Below are positions 1,917-9,023 of a DNA stretch of 54,067 bases, piece after piece. The DNA is from Burkholderiales bacterium (GTDB lineage Bacteria; Pseudomonadota; Gammaproteobacteria; Burkholderiales; SG8-39). The stretch spans positions 1 to 54,067 of the forward strand of contig DATHHS010000154.1 of assembly GCA_035317085.1 (NCBI GenBank), given 5' to 3'. The translations under genes were made by a program, and so were the position numbers. The notes beneath the pieces were generated by a model, which worked only from the letters and a program-made list of their open reading frames with translations, did not search any database and was not told the origin of the DNA. How positions within the stretch are numbered: position 1 is the stretch's first letter; each line of letters starts with the position of its first letter.

Positions 1917-1945
1917 ACTATACCTGCGTTCCCTTGCTGCTTCAA
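1917..1945 (-). promoter_or_regulatory. Candidate sigma70 promoter of gltB (TTGAAG-17 nt-TATAGT)
   Basis: The reverse strand reads cacTTGAAGcagcaagggaacgcaggTATAGTcaaag. The -35 is at 1945-1940, the -10 at 1922-1917, and the spacer is 17 nt. It sits about 70 nt upstream of the GTG at 1844. Confidence 0.4.
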
Positions 1946-1952
1946 GTGCTTA

Positions 1953-1960
1953 GCCCCACG
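1953..1960. repeat. Target-site duplication copy 1 (GCCCCACG)
   Basis: This 8-mer lies immediately outside the left inverted repeat. It is identical to 5107-5114, immediately outside the right inverted repeat, and to 5142-5149. Confidence 0.8.
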
Positions 1961-1978
1961 GGTAGTGTCTCAGTTTGA
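1961..1978 (+). repeat. Left terminal inverted repeat (IRL)
   Basis: GGTAGTGTCTCAGTTTGA. Partial similarity continues inward (tgGTtAC versus aaGTaAC at the other end). Confidence 0.8.
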
Positions 1979-2029
1979 TGGTTACAAGGTTTGTAACCCG
2001 CTGAAAACGCAGTGCAACAAAACCCGCCT

Positions 2030-2233
2030 CTATTCCTTCTTGAGCAGTCCCCGGCCCTCCTTGTATTTCCTTACGAACTCGCTCTCAACAAGCTCTTTGA
2101 TTGCATTGTTGAGTAACGTGCGAAGCACGGCGCTTCCGTTCGTTCCCAGTATCTGCAGCGCAACCAGTTCTTGGATGAATTCGGACTGCTCTCTCGAAAT
2201 CCTATAGCTCCTGGGGACAGTTTTGCCGGCCAT
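2030..2233 (-). CDS. Ribbon-helix-helix (CopG/Arc-like) DNA-binding protein, 67 aa
   Basis: The ORF is in the track. The N-terminal strand RSYRIS is followed by two helices (REQSEFIQELVALQILG, GSAVLRTLLNNAIKEL), which is typical RHH architecture. A 26-bp palindrome lies 19 bp upstream. Confidence 0.55.
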   Translation of the reverse strand: MAGKTVPRSYRISREQSEFIQELVALQILGTNGSAVLRTLLNNAIKELVESEFVRKYKEGRGLLKKE

Positions 2234-2251
2234 AGCGGCATCTTAGCATCG

Positions 2252-2277
2252 GTTTGTATGCCAATTGACATACAAAC
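2252..2277. promoter_or_regulatory. Palindromic operator candidate upstream of the RHH gene
   Basis: GTTTGTATG-ccaattga-CATACAAAC has perfect 9-bp arms. It lies 19-44 bp upstream of the RHH ATG (2233). Confidence 0.45.
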
Positions 2278-2376
2278 GGGATGAAACTAGACTGGCCGTG
2301 TGTTCACCGGCGCATAATCCCCAGTCTAGGGAGAGACACCAAAGGATAATCGGTTAGGGACGCGGACTTCTGGTGA

Positions 2377-2449
2377 CACCACCGGAGGGAGTCGAACCCC
2401 CGACCTCAAACTTACCGAGTAAGCGCTCTATCCACTGAGCTACGGTGGT
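2377..2449 (-). tRNA. tRNA-like gene with a non-canonical anticodon arm (probable pseudo-tRNA or tRNA mimic)
   Basis: The reverse strand reads ACCACCG TA GCTC AGTGGATA GAGC G CTTAC TCGGTAA GTTTG AGGTC GGGGG TTCGACT CCCTC CGGTGGT G. The acceptor stem is 7/7, the D arm is perfect and the T arm has the TTCGACT loop. The total is 73 nt. The anticodon stem pairs at only 3/5 positions and position 33 is C. Confidence 0.5.
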
Positions 2450-2464
2450 AGGTGCTGCAACAAC

Positions 2465-2493
2465 AGGGACCCGCGAAAGCGGGTCTCTTTTTT
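2465..2493 (+). terminator. Strong intrinsic terminator on the + strand with no + strand gene upstream
   Basis: aGGGACCCGC-GAAA-GCGGGTCTCt has a 10-bp stem with one G-U and a GAAA tetraloop, and it runs into TCTTTTTT. Confidence 0.6.
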
Positions 2494-2636
2494 CCACTCG
2501 CCAATCAGCACCAAATCAGCGAGCTTCCCTATGGACCACAATGTATAGGGCCTTGAGTCGCGTGTGCAACTAATACTAGTGTAGTGTCAAGATGCAAGCG
2601 TAGTTTTCTCAAGCGCCTTCGGAACTCTGCCCCGGA

Positions 2637-3467
2637 TCAACTTGCGAGCGCTGCGATTTCCTCCAATGTCCATACGTGATCCGAGATTCCAGCTTGCATT
2701 GCTGGAGTGACGCGCAGCGTTTTGTGAATCCTTGCGAAGTTATAAAACATGTAGTGCAGCGCGACTGCGCAACAATGGTTCTCGACTTTGCGGCTAAATC
2801 CATTCGTCAGCCGCGTGAATCGACGCATGTGCATCCGCATGGTTAGATTCTGCCGCTCAACGAAACTCGTGCTGATGTGCTTTTCATCGGGATTTCCGCA
2901 TACCGCATTTTTGCGCGCTCCACAGCACTCGCCGGGGCTGTAGCGGCGGCTCTCGATATTGGTAGCGGGGTTGCTGTAAAGCTTCACGAGCATAGCGTAG
3001 TCAATATTGCGCCCGAACGAGCCTTCAACAGCAGTTAGATATGGCGTATGACCATCGCTCGTAAGCTGAACGCGATTCGCCATCCGCGAAGCTAGATCGT
3101 CAATAAAGAGCTTCGCGTATTCGAGCCAACGTTGCCCGATGAGCCAGGACGGCACTAGTTTGGTATCAGCGTCAATTGCCACCCAGGTGTAGACATCGCC
3201 ATAGCCAAGCTCGCCCCGGCGCATCGGGGGAACGTTCTTTTCTTTCATTCCGCAGAACGACCAAATTTCATCCACCTGAACGCGCTTGCACGGCAGATTC
3301 CGCAGTGTTTCGTTCTGGTACAGATCACAGGCCGTCCCTACGTCCACCAGCAGCTTGGTGACGGTATTGATGCTCACGTCGCACAGGCGAGTAGTGGCGC
3401 GCATGCTCATGCCTTCGGTCAGGCATCCGATGATCCGGGCGCGGTCTTGGAGGCCTAGGCGGTTCAT
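2637..3467 (-). CDS. IS1-family DDE transposase (single ORF, N-terminal HTH)
   Basis: The motifs align to IS1 InsAB: VDEIWSF (IS1 MDEQWGY), LTSDGHTPY (IS1 MTDGWPLY), and VERQNLTMRMHMRRFTRLTNGFSRKVENH (IS1 [29 protein letters not shown]). I place the start at ATG 3467 (MNRLGLQDRARIIG). The track start at 3506 is a GTG that contains a promoter. Confidence 0.85.
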   Translation of the reverse strand: MNRLGLQDRARIIGCLTEGMSMRATTRLCDVSINTVTKLLVDVGTACDLYQNETLRNLPCKRVQVDEIWSFCGMKEKNVPPMRRGELGYGDVYTWVAIDADTKLVPSWLIGQRWLEYAKLFIDDLASRMANRVQLTSDGHTPYLTAVEGSFGRNIDYAMLVKLYSNPATNIESRRYSPGECCGARKNAVCGNPDEKHISTSFVERQNLTMRMHMRRFTRLTNGFSRKVENHCCAVALHYMFYNFARIHKTLRVTPAMQAGISDHVWTLEEIAALAS

Positions 3468-3474
3468 AATGAAC

Positions 3475-3503
3475 ATTATGCTTAACAAATGCCGCCGTGT
3501 CAA
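3475..3503 (-). promoter_or_regulatory. Near-consensus promoter for the transposase (TTGACA-17 nt-CATAAT)
   Basis: The reverse strand reads gtgTTGACAcggcggcatttgttaagCATAATgttcattATG. The -10 ends 7 nt before ATG 3467, which implies a leaderless or near-leaderless mRNA. Confidence 0.45.
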
Positions 3504-3523
3504 CACGGTTACTATTATATATG

Positions 3524-3552
3524 TTGCAAACAGCCATCTAGTTAGTTAACAT
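3524..3552 (+). promoter_or_regulatory. Candidate promoter for the AAA+ ATPase gene (TTGCAA-17 nt-TAACAT)
   Basis: It lies in the AT-rich divergent region, 33 nt upstream of ATG 3585. AGTTAA motifs repeat at 3545-3550 and 3560-3565. Confidence 0.35.
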
Positions 3553-3584
3553 GTGCATCAGTTAATTAAATTGCTAGCGGTGAC

Positions 3585-4829
3585 ATGACGGCGAAGCAAA
3601 CGCTCAGTGATGCGGATTGGCAGTCAAAGACCTATGAAATCATAGAGTTATTCAGCCCAGGCGCGCCTATCGACGAAAACGACCTTTTCGCGGGTAGGCA
3701 ACACGAAATCAGCCAGATCATCGAGGCCGCCCTTCAAAGGGGCCAGCACGCAATCGTCTATGGTGAGCGTGGCGTCGGGAAAACCTCGCTCGCGAAAACC
3801 TTCTCGCTTCGGCTAATTCGCCCAACAAAGACCCTCTCCAGCGTAATCGTCAATTGCGATCCGCAGGATACGTTTACTAGTCTTTGGCGAAAGGTCTACA
3901 AGGATCTTGGCGAAGAGGGCGGCGGAAATGTTTTAGATGGCACAACCATCAACGATATTTCCCCTGATGATGTGCGCAGGGTGCTAACGCGGTTCGACCT
4001 GACGACTACCCCTATCATCATCCTGGACGAGTTCGACAAACTTCAAGACCCAAACGCGAAGGCGTTAATCGCGAACACCATAAAATCCTTGTCTGATTAT
4101 TCCGTTGCGGCCACGATTGTTCTGGTAGGCGTCGCCAAATCAGTCAACGACTTGCTCAGGGACCATGCATCCATAGGGCGCGCACTAATCCAAATTCCAA
4201 TGCCCCGCATGAAAGCGGCGGAATTGGCAGAAATCATAGACAAACGCCTGCCTAGAGTAGGGATGACGATCACACCCGCAGCTAAAGCACAAATTGTTGC
4301 TTTATCTGCTGGATTGCCCCACTACACGCATTTGCTCGGACAACATGCTGGCCGTCGCGCAATCGAATCAAGATCGCTGACGATAGATGTGCAGCATGTC
4401 GATGATGCTGAACGCGACTGTTTGGAGCGCGCCCATCATTCGATTAGGGAGCAATACCATCGGGCAACACAAAGCCCGAGAAGCGGGAACATCTACAAAG
4501 AGGTACTACTTGCTTGCGCCCTTGCCGAACCGGATGAATTGGGTTTTTTCCCCGCAAAGGCCATAGAAGTTCCGCTCTCAATAATTATGCAAAAGCAATA
4601 TAAGGTAGCCATGTTTGGCCAGCATCTGAAGATACTGTGCGAAGCGGATCGCGCAAAAATGTTAGAAGTGACGGGGTCCCCACGCAGATTCCGCTATAGA
4701 TTTGAGGAACCCTTAATGCAACCGTATGTGATTTTGCGCGGACTTGCAGATGGGCTAATAACAAAAAACACGCTTAGACAATTGATGCCTAACTATCTCC
4801 AGCCACGACTTTCTGGCGGCGAGGTCTAG
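3585..4829 (+). CDS. Orc1/Cdc6-like AAA+ ATPase, 414 aa (passenger gene)
   Basis: FAGRQHEISQIIEAALQRGQHAIVYGERGVGKTSLA contains the Walker A motif and IIILDEFD is the Walker B motif. A VLVGVA sensor-like strand follows, then a helical lid and a probable C-terminal winged helix. The gene is AT-richer than the host. Confidence 0.75.
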   Translation: MTAKQTLSDADWQSKTYEIIELFSPGAPIDENDLFAGRQHEISQIIEAALQRGQHAIVYGERGVGKTSLAKTFSLRLIRPTKTLSSVIVNCDPQDTFTSLWRKVYKDLGEEGGGNVLDGTTINDISPDDVRRVLTRFDLTTTPIIILDEFDKLQDPNAKALIANTIKSLSDYSVAATIVLVGVAKSVNDLLRDHASIGRALIQIPMPRMKAAELAEIIDKRLPRVGMTITPAAKAQIVALSAGLPHYTHLLGQHAGRRAIESRSLTIDVQHVDDAERDCLERAHHSIREQYHRATQSPRSGNIYKEVLLACALAEPDELGFFPAKAIEVPLSIIMQKQYKVAMFGQHLKILCEADRAKMLEVTGSPRRFRYRFEEPLMQPYVILRGLADGLITKNTLRQLMPNYLQPRLSGGEV

Positions 4830-5040
4830 CGCCCCATCTGGCCTTGGCTGCTTTTTGAGCGATTTGGACTCTTCGTTGCGGGGTAAGAGTCTGCGCTCGT
4901 ATGACTCCACCCTTCAACCCTCCGGGCCGCCCTCGTATGGGCTCTTTTTGCCGTTCCTCTTCAATGCTGCCCGTGGAAATATCGACAATTAGCTTGGCTA
5001 ACTGATTCGCGTCGCGCGGTCTGCGGGGACGTGTTGCCAT
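4789..5040 (-). CDS. Small basic protein, 83 aa (RPRDANQLAKLIVD ... IAQKAAKARW motif)
   Basis: The ORF is in the track, with ATG at 5040 preceded by a GGGGG SD-like run. From memory, the N-terminal NQLAK.IVD and C-terminal KAAKARW pattern recurs in small hypothetical proteins of mobile regions. It overlaps the ATPase 3' end by 41 nt, convergently. Confidence 0.5.
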   Translation of the reverse strand: MATRPRRPRDANQLAKLIVDISTGSIEEERQKEPIRGRPGGLKGGVIRAQTLTPQRRVQIAQKAAKARWGARPRRQKVVAGDS

Positions 5041-5088
5041 GCCCCCATTTTATCCCGCCTCATCCCGGCCAGTCCCGCAGCGTTACTT

Positions 5089-5106
5089 TCAAACTGAGAC
5101 ACTACC
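5089..5106 (-). repeat. Right terminal inverted repeat (IRR)
   Basis: TCAAACTGAGACACTACC is the exact reverse complement of 1961-1978. Confidence 0.8.
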
Positions 5107-5114
5107 GCCCCACG
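5107..5114. repeat. Target-site duplication copy 2 (GCCCCACG)
   Basis: It is immediately outside IRR and identical to 1953-1960. Confidence 0.8.
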
Positions 5115-5141
5115 GGTAGTGTCTCAAACTGAGACACTACC
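5115..5141. mobile_element. 27-bp IR-IR mini-element (remnant of a second element copy)
   Basis: GGTAGTGTCTCAAACTGAGACACTACC consists of an 11-nt IRL tip joined to a 16-nt IRR tip. It is followed by a third GCCCCACG. Confidence 0.6.
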
Positions 5142-5149
5142 GCCCCACG
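5142..5149. repeat. Target-site duplication copy 3 (GCCCCACG)
   Basis: It is identical to 1953-1960 and 5107-5114. Confidence 0.7.
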
Positions 5150-6872: not shown

Positions 6873-9023
6873 TCAGCGCTGGCTGAGCCTCTGCTCGACG
6901 ATGCGCGGGGTAATGAACACCAAAAGCTCGGTCTTGTTGTCCGAGCGGGAATTGTTGCGGAAAAGTACGCCGAGCAGCGGGAGGTCGCCGAAAAACGGCA
7001 CCTTGGTGATAGTGGTCTGCAGAGTCTGGGTGTAGATGCCTCCGATCACCACTGTGCCACCGTTTTCTACCAGCACCTGCGTCAGAACGTGCTTAGTATC
7101 GATAGCGAAGCCGGCATTGGTACTCTGGCCCACGGAATCCTTGTTGATGTCCAGATTCATAATGACGTTGCCGTCGGGCGTGATCTGAGGCCTGACCTTG
7201 AGCGCGAGGTTCGCCTTGCGGAATGAAATCGAGGTCGCACCGCTCGAAGTCGCCTGCTGATAAGGCAATTCTGTGCCCTGTTCGATGAGCGCTTCGACGT
7301 TGTTGGCGGTCATCACCCTCGGACTCGAGATGATCTTGCCCTTGCCGTCGGCCTCCAGCGCGGAAAGTTCAAGCTGAAGAGCCCCGGTGAGTTTATTAGT
7401 GATCAGCAATGCGATGGAACCCGCTGCCGCAGCATTTCCAACCGGGGCCGCCGGCAGGTTGACGCTCAGGTTATCCGGGGTCTTGGTCGTTATCTGTCCT
7501 CCTCCCGCCGGAAATAGATTGGGCAGGTCGGCAAGTGTTCCGGTTTGCGTTACGGCCACACCCGTGACATTGCCACCTATGGGACTCGGTCCGCTGCTAT
7601 TGCCGCTTTGCGCGAGCGGCAGCGACACATTCCCCATCCGCACCCCTAGATTTTTCGAGAAACTGTCGTTGGCTTCAACGATACGCGCCTCGATCAGCAC
7701 CTGCTGTACCGGAACGTCGACCTGAGTCAGCAATTTTCGTACTTCCTCCAGTCGAACACCGACGTCCTGTACAAACACCTGATTGGTGCGAAGATCGACC
7801 GAAGCAGCACCGCGCTTGGAAAGGATACGTTGCAGCGGATCGGCGAGAAGCTTCGCGAAGGCATCGGCCTTGGCGTAATTGAGCTGGAAGGTTTCGGTGC
7901 GCAGGGGTTCCAGCTCCGTGATTTGCGCCGTAGACTCGAGCGCGAGCTTCTCCTTCGTGGCGAGCTCGTCGCGCGGCGCGATCCAGATCACGTTACCGTT
8001 CTTGCGCATGTCCAGGCCCCGGGTCTGCAGGATGATGTCGAGGGCCTGGTCCCAGGGCACATCCTTCAGGCGCAGCGTGAGGTTTCCTCCCACCGAGTCG
8101 CTGGTGATGATGTTCAGATCGGTGAAGTCCGCGATGACGTTCAGTACGCTCCTCACTTCGACGTTCTGGAAGTTGAGCGAAAGCTTTTCACCCGTATAGC
8201 CGCTACGCGTGCCCTGCACGAGCTTGTTCGGATCGTACTGGATCGGCTTTACCTCGAGCACGAACTGGGTGTCGGTCTGGTAGGCGTTGTGTTCCCACAA
8301 CCCGCGCGGTTCGATCACCATGCGCACGTTGTCGCCCTGCGGAAAAACGCTCAGGGTCTGGACCGGGGTTGCGAAGTCAACCACGTCGTAGCGTTTGCGC
8401 AGCGTTTCGGGGACGCTGGTCTTGAGAAAATCAACGATTACAGTCTGCCCCTGTTGGCGGATGTCCACCCCGGTGGACGTATCGGATAACTCAACGACGA
8501 TTCGGCCTTCGCCGCCGCTGCCGCGCCGGAAGTTAATGTCCCTGAGGGCGTGCTGGACGTCAGACCTGCCTTCCGCGAAACGCGCGGAGCCGCCGCCCGC
8601 AGCCTGCCGTGCAAACCCCGAGGTAGCGGCTGCCAGAGTCACCAACAAGTTGTTTCCCTCGATCTTGGATTCGTACGAAACCATGTTGCGCAGGTTGAGC
8701 ACCAGGCGGGTGCGTTCGCCCGCTTGCACTACGTTCATCGAGCGCAGCACCCCCTCGCCTATATCCTGGCTGGTGCGCCCGAGGCCATTGGAGGTATCGG
8801 GAAAATCGAATGCGATCCGGGCAGGATTGGCTATGGTAAAGCTGCCCGGAGCAGCCGGGATGGGACTCTTGAAGCTTACCCGTACCAGGACTTGTCCACC
8901 GCTCTGAGTGACGTCGAAGTTCTCGATGCTGTTCTGCTGAGCCTCGGCAAGAGACGCGAACAGGAGCAAACCGAATGTGCCAATAGATGCTTGAATGAAT
9001 CTTCGCACCAGGACGTTACTCAT
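6873..9023 (-). CDS. pilQ: Type IV pilus secretin PilQ
   Basis: The product is 716 aa with a signal peptide, N-terminal AMIN-like repeats and a C-terminal secretin domain ([41 protein letters not shown]). It is the last gene of pilMNOPQ. Confidence 0.95.

Follow-up and report, generated by a model that had tools for sequence, protein, structure and literature searches.

In the present study, we describe a 3146-bp element located between aroB and gltB, at positions 1961-5106 of a 54,067-nt stretch of DNA from a Burkholderiales bacterium (contig DATHHS010000154.1). The whole stretch is called the window below, coordinates are those of the window, and loci of relatives are labelled L001 onward. 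The element is very probably an intact transporter insertion sequence (tIS), i.e., an insertion sequence (IS) with passenger genes, which belongs to a large and little-described IS1-related clade and moves as one unit. Members of this clade transpose as whole units with defined boundaries, follow the same plan, keep a conserved small gene and carry a mosaic cargo. Furthermore, they insert with the 8-bp target 7 bp upstream of a sigma-70 -35 hexamer, or less often one helical turn nearer or further, and leave the core promoter intact. On balance, we lean towards the view that the clade picks its targets by reading promoters, making an 8-bp staggered cut 7 bp upstream of the -35 hexamer, mostly in one orientation, and that elements are thereby concentrated for cargo shuffling.

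Boundaries, core genes and relatives of the element

An earlier reading of this DNA, made from the sequence alone (the sequence-only reading), had proposed one unit between aroB and gltB with IS1-type ends, an 8-bp duplication, an IS1-related DDE transposase and genes unrelated to transposition, and this description holds. As it had stated, GGTAGTGTCTCAGTTTGA at 1961-1978 is the exact reverse complement of 5089-5106; the terminal inverted repeat (IR, TCAGTTTGAAAT) extends to 25 nt at 88% identity (22/25). With the transposase read forward, the repeat at the transposase-distal 3' end (1961-1985, plus strand, tip GGTAGTG) is referred to as IRR, and the repeat adjoining the small open reading frame (ORF) (5082-5106, minus strand) as IRL. 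IS1-family ends follow GGnnnTG and the duplications comprise 8-9 bp, and GGTAGTG, found at both ends of the element, has this form. The family consensus of the IR is GGTAGTGnnTCAGTTTGAAAT, with GGTAGTGnnTCAGTTTGA as the conserved ends. When up to three mismatches are allowed, four matches to the 18-mer are found in the window, where 0.01 would be expected, all of them at the element locus. The 8-mer GCCCCACG abuts both ends (1953-1960 and 5107-5114), as had also been claimed. Taken alone, the 8-mer is no rarity in DNA so rich in GC (4 occurrences against 3.6 expected); what gives it weight is its placement at the ends, together with the family comparison.

The base counts given earlier (28/60, 33/60 and 38/60 GC) are exact, and the GC content is 52.3% in the element against 61% in both flanks. 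The right-hand limit of 5149 took in a 27-bp mini-element and a third copy of the duplication, neither of which had been described. We found no closer functional IR pair that excludes the cargo, and no relative with the cargo at this locus without the IRs. The empty site can be reconstructed as ...ttgcttcgcag CGTGGGGC taagcacTTGAAG... The DDE protein was rightly named as the only recombinase, there being no integrase among the window ORFs. An integrase-type genomic island at a tRNA gene was rejected on this ground, and also because the tRNA-like gene is internal and the boundaries are inverted rather than direct att repeats.

Scans with the transposase of one genome per species and of Joint Genome Institute (JGI) metagenomes yielded 160 loci with 56-91% identity, exact-protein look-ups added 24 loci, and 170 loci were analyzed. 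They span Proteobacteria, Acidobacteriota, Bacteroidota, Nitrospirota and other phyla. In 107 of the 170, an element with the family ends was complete; lengths were about 1.3-6.0 kb and in nearly all cases within 2-6 kb. Among the approximately 101 complete elements that could be evaluated, 86 are flanked by perfect 8-bp duplications, all different in sequence, which settles the boundaries and indicates that whole units transpose. With the transposase forward, the family plan is IRL, the small basic ORF, cargo slot 1, the DDE transposase, an optional cargo slot 2 and IRR. Thus, the transposase in the middle with cargo on both sides, which had been taken for a peculiarity of this element, is the normal arrangement. 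The second slot occurs in about two thirds of the elements, and the length behind the transposase gene is bimodal (up to 90 bp, or 209 bp and more).

The transposase (2637-3467, minus strand) consists of 276 amino acids (aa) with an N-terminal helix-turn-helix (HTH). A promoter scan revealed a near-consensus promoter, TTGACA-17-CATAAT (3475-3503, minus strand; 11/12 matches), which ends 7 nt before the ATG at 3467; for this reason, the transposase mRNA may be leaderless or nearly so. A longer ORF of 289 aa starting with GTG is probably not used. The residues D66, D138 and E204 (the latter in VERQNLTMR) are invariant across 152 distinct family sequences, and this conservation points to DDE chemistry. 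Based on BLASTP, the block around the glutamate aligns with E. coli InsB (E=9e-7, with an approximate InsB query). More than 8000 transposase homologues exist, named "IS1 family transposase" by their sources. In NCBIfam, transpos_IS1 is the best-matching IS family, followed by IS6 (22.9 bits) and IS1595 (19.3 bits), and in Pfam, PF03400 is matched with 26.0 bits (cut-off 24.1), over residues 211-247 only.

The nearest family is, judging by the ends, the duplication and the transposase blocks, IS1. The element shares with it the blocks DExW, TSDG/TDG and ERxNxxxR, the GGnnnTG ends, a duplication of 8 bp (8-9 bp in the family) and the N-terminal HTH. In contrast, at 3146 bp it is four times longer than IS1 (about 0.77 kb); members of the IS1 family measure about 0.7-1.2 kb and carry no passengers, whereas about 1.9 kb of the element is non-core content. 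A conserved small basic ORF at the other end, two cargo slots and a promoter-anchored choice of target also set it apart.

Several observations weigh against the assignment of the window copy to a mobile IS1-type unit. The transpos_IS1 score (NF033558, 50.8 bits, E=1.9e-13) is below the cut-off of 100, which makes membership of IS1 proper marginal. The transposase is encoded by a single ORF rather than an insA/insB' frameshift pair, and it shows no zinc-finger motif and no CxxC pairs in the N-terminal 60 residues. Single-ORF subgroups of IS1 without the frameshift are known, so its lack excludes the classical IS1 group only. For ISMhu11, which the sequence-only reading had named as a subgroup reaching several kb, no full-text literature match was found. 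No second copy of the exact element was found (the exact ATPase is on record solely on the source contig), and no empty aroB-gltB allele was recovered (an exact AroB look-up returned no record, and the collections were scanned by transposase). The window copy itself is probably mobile, as suggested by its intact ends, its intact catalytic residues and its relatives. Finally, the functions of the cargo genes are all putative and unproven.

The small basic protein (83 aa; 4789-5040, minus strand) contains the motifs RPRDxNQLAKLIVDI and GGLKGG..LTPxxRxxIAxKAAxARW. It had been regarded as a passenger; instead, it is the product of a conserved core gene. Homologues were detected in 62 of the 63 complete elements of the first set by ORF clustering and in 65 of 80 genome loci by tblastn. 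The ORF typically begins about 65 bp inside one end, on the transposase strand, and the family consensus is PKRPRDxNQLAKxIVDIATGE...GGLKGGKARAxxLTPEQRxEIAKKAAxARW. We found no sequence match to it in Pfam or the Protein Data Bank (PDB). The AlphaFold2 (AF2) model has three helices and no confident fold (predicted template modelling score, pTM, 0.34), and Foldseek returned no match for it. The protein from the window has an atypical C-terminal tail (GARPRRQKVVAGDS) and GGVIRAQ in place of the family GGKARA. Its ORF converges with the ATPase gene, and the two 3' ends overlap by 41 bp (4789-4829). The ORF is not called as a gene in the source record of the window; one GenBank record annotates it as "histone H1" (L186 2075-2284; CP050295.1, Mesorhizobium loti plasmid).

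Insertion sites and host promoters

In the window, the element lies upstream of gltB. A promoter scan identified a host sigma-70-type promoter in front of this gene at 1917-1945 (minus strand), with -35 TTGAAG (1945-1940), a 17-nt spacer and -10 TATAGT (1922-1917). Seven base pairs (taagcac) separate the duplication from the -35 hexamer, and the -10 hexamer ends 39 nt before the called TTG start of gltB at 1877. The earlier account of the insertion site had missed this promoter, which defines the insertion point.

The same arrangement was found in the relatives. In an alignment of 82 non-redundant empty sites, each turned so that the transposase reads forward, TTGAC(A) begins 7 bp after the duplication on the IRR side, and a minor class lies 10 bp closer. 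With the -35 hexamer at +15, the best -10 hexamer at 16-18 nt spacing matches on average 3.87 of 6 positions, against 2.0-2.4 at control offsets; TAnnnT at this spacing was present in 13 of 30 sites, against 0-2 in controls. A full promoter, defined by at least 4/6 matches in each hexamer and at least 9/12 overall, was seen at +15 on the IRR side of 19 and on the IRL side of 4 of the 80 sites, with a background of 0.01 per position. Across 256 unique junctions, TTG stands at +15 in 45 of 132 IRR flanks and 24 of 124 IRL flanks and at +5 in 18 IRR and 5 IRL flanks, with 0-7 at other positions (control about 1-3 per position). Taken together, 54 of 80 sites have an in-register -35-like hexamer (+5, +15 or +25, on one side), compared with 2-11 in shifted controls. 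The register has a periodicity of about 10 bp, and IRR faces the promoter with a bias of approximately 2-5 to 1.

In agreement with this pattern, the element lies in nine loci 56-91 bp upstream of a host tRNA gene and never at its 3' end; several of these cases share both tRNA and distance and may be the same insertion, which leaves about seven independent events. In L040, the element is about 38 bp upstream of the transfer-messenger RNA (tmRNA) gene, and in L179-182 it is upstream of dnaA, with a -35-like hexamer at +25.

Two points count against targeting. About one third of the sites have no clear in-register -35 hexamer. In addition, natural insertions are survivors, and selection against intragenic hits could inflate the share of promoters at TTGAC-adjacent sites. 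At the same time, it would be difficult to account for the exact spacing, for its helical periodicity and for repeated, independent hits if there were no targeting. It is possible that the HTH of the transposase reads the -35-like sequence: the IR itself includes TTGAAA at 14 bp from the tip, which agrees with the -35 consensus at 5/6 positions and would mimic a -35 box. The conserved small basic protein is another candidate reader, and contact with promoter-bound RNA polymerase a third. Promoter recognition may take place through the sequence, read by the transposase or the small protein, or through the bound polymerase. In the openly searchable literature, we found no report of promoter-directed or tRNA-upstream IS targeting, and an earlier description is possible; of these results, the promoter rule has the best chance of being new.

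A sibling element in a related population occupies the same place between aroB and gltB (L082 332-3710, also L083-L085). Its transposase (P0004) has 91% aa identity to that of the window. The L082-085 contigs are 99.8-100% identical to one another, and their flanks are 79-87% identical to the window. With respect to the conserved flanks, the insertion point is the same: ...gcttcgcag, 8 bp, element, 8 bp, taagcacTTGA(A/G)G... The sibling duplication is CGCTGCTC, against CGTGGGGC for the window (GCCCCACG on that strand), each being perfect within its own genome, and the two differ at 4 of 8 positions. Since the copies are identical within each genome and half diverged between the lineages, these are separate insertion events. 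Conserved segments comprise IRL and the 5' small ORF (about 79%), the transposase gene with a further 80 bp (85%) and IRR (96%). The slots are occupied differently. Slot 1 of the sibling holds an unrelated SLFN/AlbA_2 ATPase, and slot 2 holds a different degenerate tRNA-Thr-like gene (CGU anticodon, long D-loop insert, 32 bits) and a diverged 71-aa ORF. At their 3' ends, the L084 and L085 metagenome contigs stop exactly at the IRR tip, a pattern expected of a repeated end or of a site polymorphic in the population.

Cargo slots and tandem arrays

The contents of the slots vary widely. An XRE-HTH/M78 peptidase with a HigB-like toxin was found in 15 loci, and Fic, P63C, RhuM, D12 methylase, an AbiEii-type ATPase, ParA-like, NYN and ClpP-like protease genes were found in others. 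As to whether the cargo is conserved between copies, which the sequence-only reading had left to be checked, the ATPase of the window recurs in some relatives, while unrelated genes fill the slots elsewhere. The toxins, Fic, Abi-type ATPase and methylase of the relatives suggest, by analogy, that the cargo plays accessory, defence-like or addiction-like roles. Slot 2 of L001, the closest relative in the genome collection (transposase 80%), contains a type I 3-dehydroquinase (7016-7765; aroD-type, Pfam E=3.5e-50), i.e., a housekeeping-type enzyme as IS cargo. Slot 1 of L045 (2930-4492), L053 and L077 contains an IS630/DDE_3-type transposase, so that one IS is nested inside another.

Slot 2 of the window includes two genes on the minus strand. 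The first is a 67-aa ORF (2030-2233), for which Pfam, NCBIfam and the PDB gave no match. It had been labelled a ribbon-helix-helix (RHH) protein, a label that these databases do not support; R-x-Y-R-I-S and two helices resemble RHH by eye only. A homologue was detected in the sibling L082 alone, whose 71-aa ORF occupies the corresponding place (phmmer E=6.5e-13). The second is a tRNA-Thr(GGU)-like gene (2375-2450), annotated by ARAGORN, with canonical acceptor, D and T arms. A GC-rich hairpin between it and the transposase gene (2465-2494) is terminator-like on both strands.

The tRNA-like character noted earlier is borne out by Rfam (RF00005, 54.9 bits against a gathering score of 29), but the anticodon arm, position 33 and the ends are deviant. 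The anticodon stem has two U-U oppositions and position 33 is C, the first pair is A1-U72, and no CCA is encoded, UCACCA following the discriminator. In the minimum free energy (MFE) fold, the anticodon arm closes into a 6-bp stem with a UCG triloop. Identity rules for tRNA-Thr are established for E. coli. The canonical features (a 5-bp anticodon stem, a 7-nt loop with U33, G1-C72 and a usable 3' end) are lacking here, and the host tRNA-Thr(GGU) genes in L018 and L060 are canonical. Judging from these deviations, a role in decoding is doubtful.

Other family members also contain tRNA-like genes, with 45-70 Rfam bits where scored. They lie inside elements or, on incomplete elements, between one end and the transposase gene: L008 2742-2830, L108 143-227, L136 1016-1189, L086 406-481, L007 3407-3482, L020 3986-4072, L069 5816-5890, L124 3398-3475 and L159 3892-3964. 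Three of them (L008, L108 and L136) are type II with a UUA anticodon and would read the UAA (ochre) stop codon, and others combine anticodons and arms in ways unusual for their nominal identity. In about 215 kb of cargo there are about 7-12 such genes; genome density would, by our estimate, give about 3, and the excess of about 3-fold is modest. The tRNA-like genes of the cargo stand out as atypical, not as numerous.

With regard to the origin of slot 2, it is possible, if rather unlikely, that the original IS ended just after the transposase gene and that host DNA, now seen as the tRNA-like gene and the 67-aa ORF, was captured once an IR-like sequence further downstream had come to serve as the end. 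The two would then be a by-product of insertion in front of tRNA promoters and not cargo under selection. Insertions 56-91 bp upstream of tRNA genes with IRR facing them are frequent in the family, and in the window the tRNA-like gene is downstream of the transposase gene on the same strand. In 38 relatives, the element ends within 90 bp of the transposase stop. About 55 bp past the stop at 2637, GTAGTGTC (2581-2588, within 2577-2594), a correctly oriented stretch of 8 nt that matches the IR tip, is common to the window and the sibling, and the tRNA-like gene has degenerated differently in each of the two siblings. However, this possible relic of an inner IRR, a weak lead only, is at chance frequency in the family (2/63), and no promoter follows it in the expected register. 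Furthermore, tRNA-like genes also occur in slot 1, some of them opposite to the transposase strand (L086, L008). In both siblings, it is next to the outer ends that the duplications are found; the module thus travels with the element at present, and capture concerns its origin only. It is plausible that the slot-2 tRNA-like genes were captured from tRNA promoters.

Immediately beyond the second duplication there is a 27-bp mini-element (5115-5141), a perfect palindrome GGTAGTGTCTCA-AAC-TGAGACACTACC, followed by a third copy of GCCCCACG (5142-5149). It joins 12 nt from one IR tip to 15-18 nt from the other, with a TCA common to both at the junction. In the sibling L082, a 24-bp IR-IR palindrome accompanied by an 8-bp repeat of its own lies 11 bp from the main duplication. 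Under a strict scan, short IR-IR palindromes with 8-bp repeats were found in the window and L082 only, and hence they are not a general mobile repeat; a permissive scan gave pure noise.

Arrays in which the spacer equals the duplication were found in L024, L039 and L078, with two elements each, and in L056. In L056 (3956-8215), three tandem elements are separated by gagccgct, gagccact and GAGCCACT, and the group is located immediately in front of a tRNA-Gly(GCC) gene with a TTGACT-17-GACAAT promoter. The order in an array is the older element, 8 bp, the newer element, 8 bp, 7 bp and the -35 hexamer. The left flanks of L124, L125 and L139 end in an IR tip, suggesting that these are arrays as well. 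Array neighbours carry different IR variants, which means that they are different elements and not dimers.

Based on these observations, we suggest the following sequence of events. Insertion would regenerate the target beside the promoter, leaving the same 8 bp open to a renewed hit. Because the duplication restores the target next to the promoter, arrays of the type IS-duplication-IS result. The 27-bp palindrome with the third GCCCCACG would be the decayed, promoter-distal remnant of an earlier occupant, and the intact element the promoter-proximal member. The sibling at the same position and the second mini-element, that of L082, would represent further hits on the gltB promoter. Recombination between the conserved cores of array neighbours would swap the cargo slots, and cargo may be shuffled between neighbouring elements in this way.

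The triple GCCCCACG and the abutted ends could instead be the footprint of an IS dimer or of a re-integrated circle rather than of two insertions, although we regard this as unlikely. The order IRR-8 bp-IRL is reportedly the geometry of IS1 circle junctions, and the mini-element and the full copy have the same IR variant. By contrast, the array neighbours in L024, L039 and L056 differ in both IR variants and contents, a separate mini-element with an 8-bp repeat of its own lies 11 bp away in the sibling lineage, and repeated hits on the same 8 bp are what the promoter rule predicts.

Slot 1 of the window, transcribed divergently from the transposase gene, encodes an AAA+ ATPase of 414 aa (3585-4829, plus strand). 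Walker motifs are present, and Pfam matches include AAA_22, nSTAND1, AAA_16 and TniB. The confident AF2 model (predicted local distance difference test, pLDDT, 87.5) comprises an AAA+ base, a lid and a C-terminal winged helix. The top Foldseek matches are archaeal Orc1/Cdc6 structures (2v1u, 2qby and 1fnn; E about 1e-11, TM-score 0.48-0.55, about 400 columns, full length). The score against TIGR02928 is only 47.8 bits, below the cut-off of 181. Therefore, the Orc1/Cdc6-like label given to the protein earlier is right for the fold but not for membership: according to the model, it is an ATPase with an Orc1/Cdc6-like fold outside the initiator equivalog. PADLOC gave weak P-loop matches only (mad8, E=2e-8 across 55 residues) and thus offers no basis for naming a defence system.

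Homologues of the ATPase were found in several relatives. L179-182 contain a complete 3452-bp element between dnaA and rnpA with the duplication AAATTTCA, in which the ATPase has 74%, the transposase 71% and the small ORF 66% identity to those of the window. In L182 (2262-5713), this element adjoins a DnaA-box-like TGTGGATAA in the upstream region of dnaA. In L183-185, the identities are 69% for the ATPase and 52% for the transposase. Further homologues are located in slot 1, divergent from the transposase gene, in L062, L024, L091, L120, L132 and L149. Judging from these occurrences, the ATPase is a recurrent passenger that travels with the element.

An improbable alternative is that the ATPase is a transposition helper which, in the role of TniB, TnsC, MuB or IstB, chooses or prepares the target, the element being a two-protein transposon. 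The Pfam TniB match (27.1 bits, cut-off 22.4), the divergent location of the ATPase family beside the transposase family in at least nine independent contexts and the IS linkage of two of the three sampled homologues with 69-75% identity are consistent with such a role. Nevertheless, only 7 of the 170 loci (about 4% of the family) carry the ATPase, and unrelated genes occupy the same slot, including the SLFN/AlbA_2 ATPase in the 91%-identical sibling. The target rule is the same with or without it (window, L062 and L024 at +15, L179 at +25), the full-length Orc1/Cdc6 fold with a winged helix is not TniB-like, and one homologue with 75% identity is solitary, with no transposase nearby. Transposons with AAA+ target selection (Tn7, Tn5053, Mu and IS21) were also considered as a class for the element and rejected, since the ATPase is not universal, not co-oriented and replaced in siblings.

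As for the unit itself, the notion that the IRs are unrelated short repeats or ends of MITEs (miniature transposable elements with inverted repeats) bracketing ordinary chromosomal genes, which the commonness of the bare 8-mer would allow, has next to no probability and is effectively refuted by the family comparison: the 18-mer IR is expected by chance just 0.01 times, the GC content falls by 9 points exactly between the repeats, and about 100 unrelated genomes have the same plan (IR, small ORF, transposase, IR) together with 8-bp duplications.

Comparison with known systems and implications

The concept of the tIS, an IS with passenger genes, has been described previously (PMC3129680, PMC7986276, PMC9330008), and the TnCentral authors record passenger-carrying IS only for the IS1595 and IS66 families. 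The tIS of these families and the element from the window have in common IS-type ends and duplications, with passengers unrelated to transposition in a single unit. The window clade differs from the tIS of IS1595 in its transposase, which scores 50.8 bits for IS1 and 19.3 bits for IS1595, and the tIS description lacks the two-slot plan, the core small ORF and the promoter targeting.

In its choice of site, the clade resembles Ty3 and Ty1 of yeast, which integrate at a fixed short distance upstream of a transcription unit, leave the gene intact and have tRNA genes as frequent neighbours. This is a functional analogy and not homology: Ty3 and Ty1 are eukaryotic long terminal repeat (LTR) retroelements guided by RNA polymerase III factors, whereas the landmark here is a sigma-70-type -35/-10 promoter. 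Tn7 at attTn7 and safe-site transposons similarly show an orientation bias, a set distance from a landmark, sparing of genes and accessory or defence-like cargo. Unlike the window clade, Tn7 has a dedicated sequence-specific TnsD and an AAA+ regulator for one site; for the clade, any of thousands of promoters could serve as a site, with the small basic ORF a candidate targeting protein only.

Passenger-carrying IS blur the line between IS and transposons, and here this is seen in an IS1-related clade distributed over many phyla, with a fixed two-slot plan and an unannotated core protein. There are also consequences for annotation, as the small ORF is left uncalled or, in one record, named "histone H1", and the element boundaries carry no annotation. 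If promoter targeting is true, the clade would be a bacterial counterpart of the Ty3-like "safe-haven" integration and would represent a new route to harmless sites for a DDE element, possibly of use as a promoter-proximal integration tool. It would also mean that foreign genes come to lie immediately in front of promoters of the host, for example those of gltB, dnaA and tRNA genes. Finally, it would explain the recurrent occupation of the same site in different lineages and provide a mechanism for the exchange of cargo.

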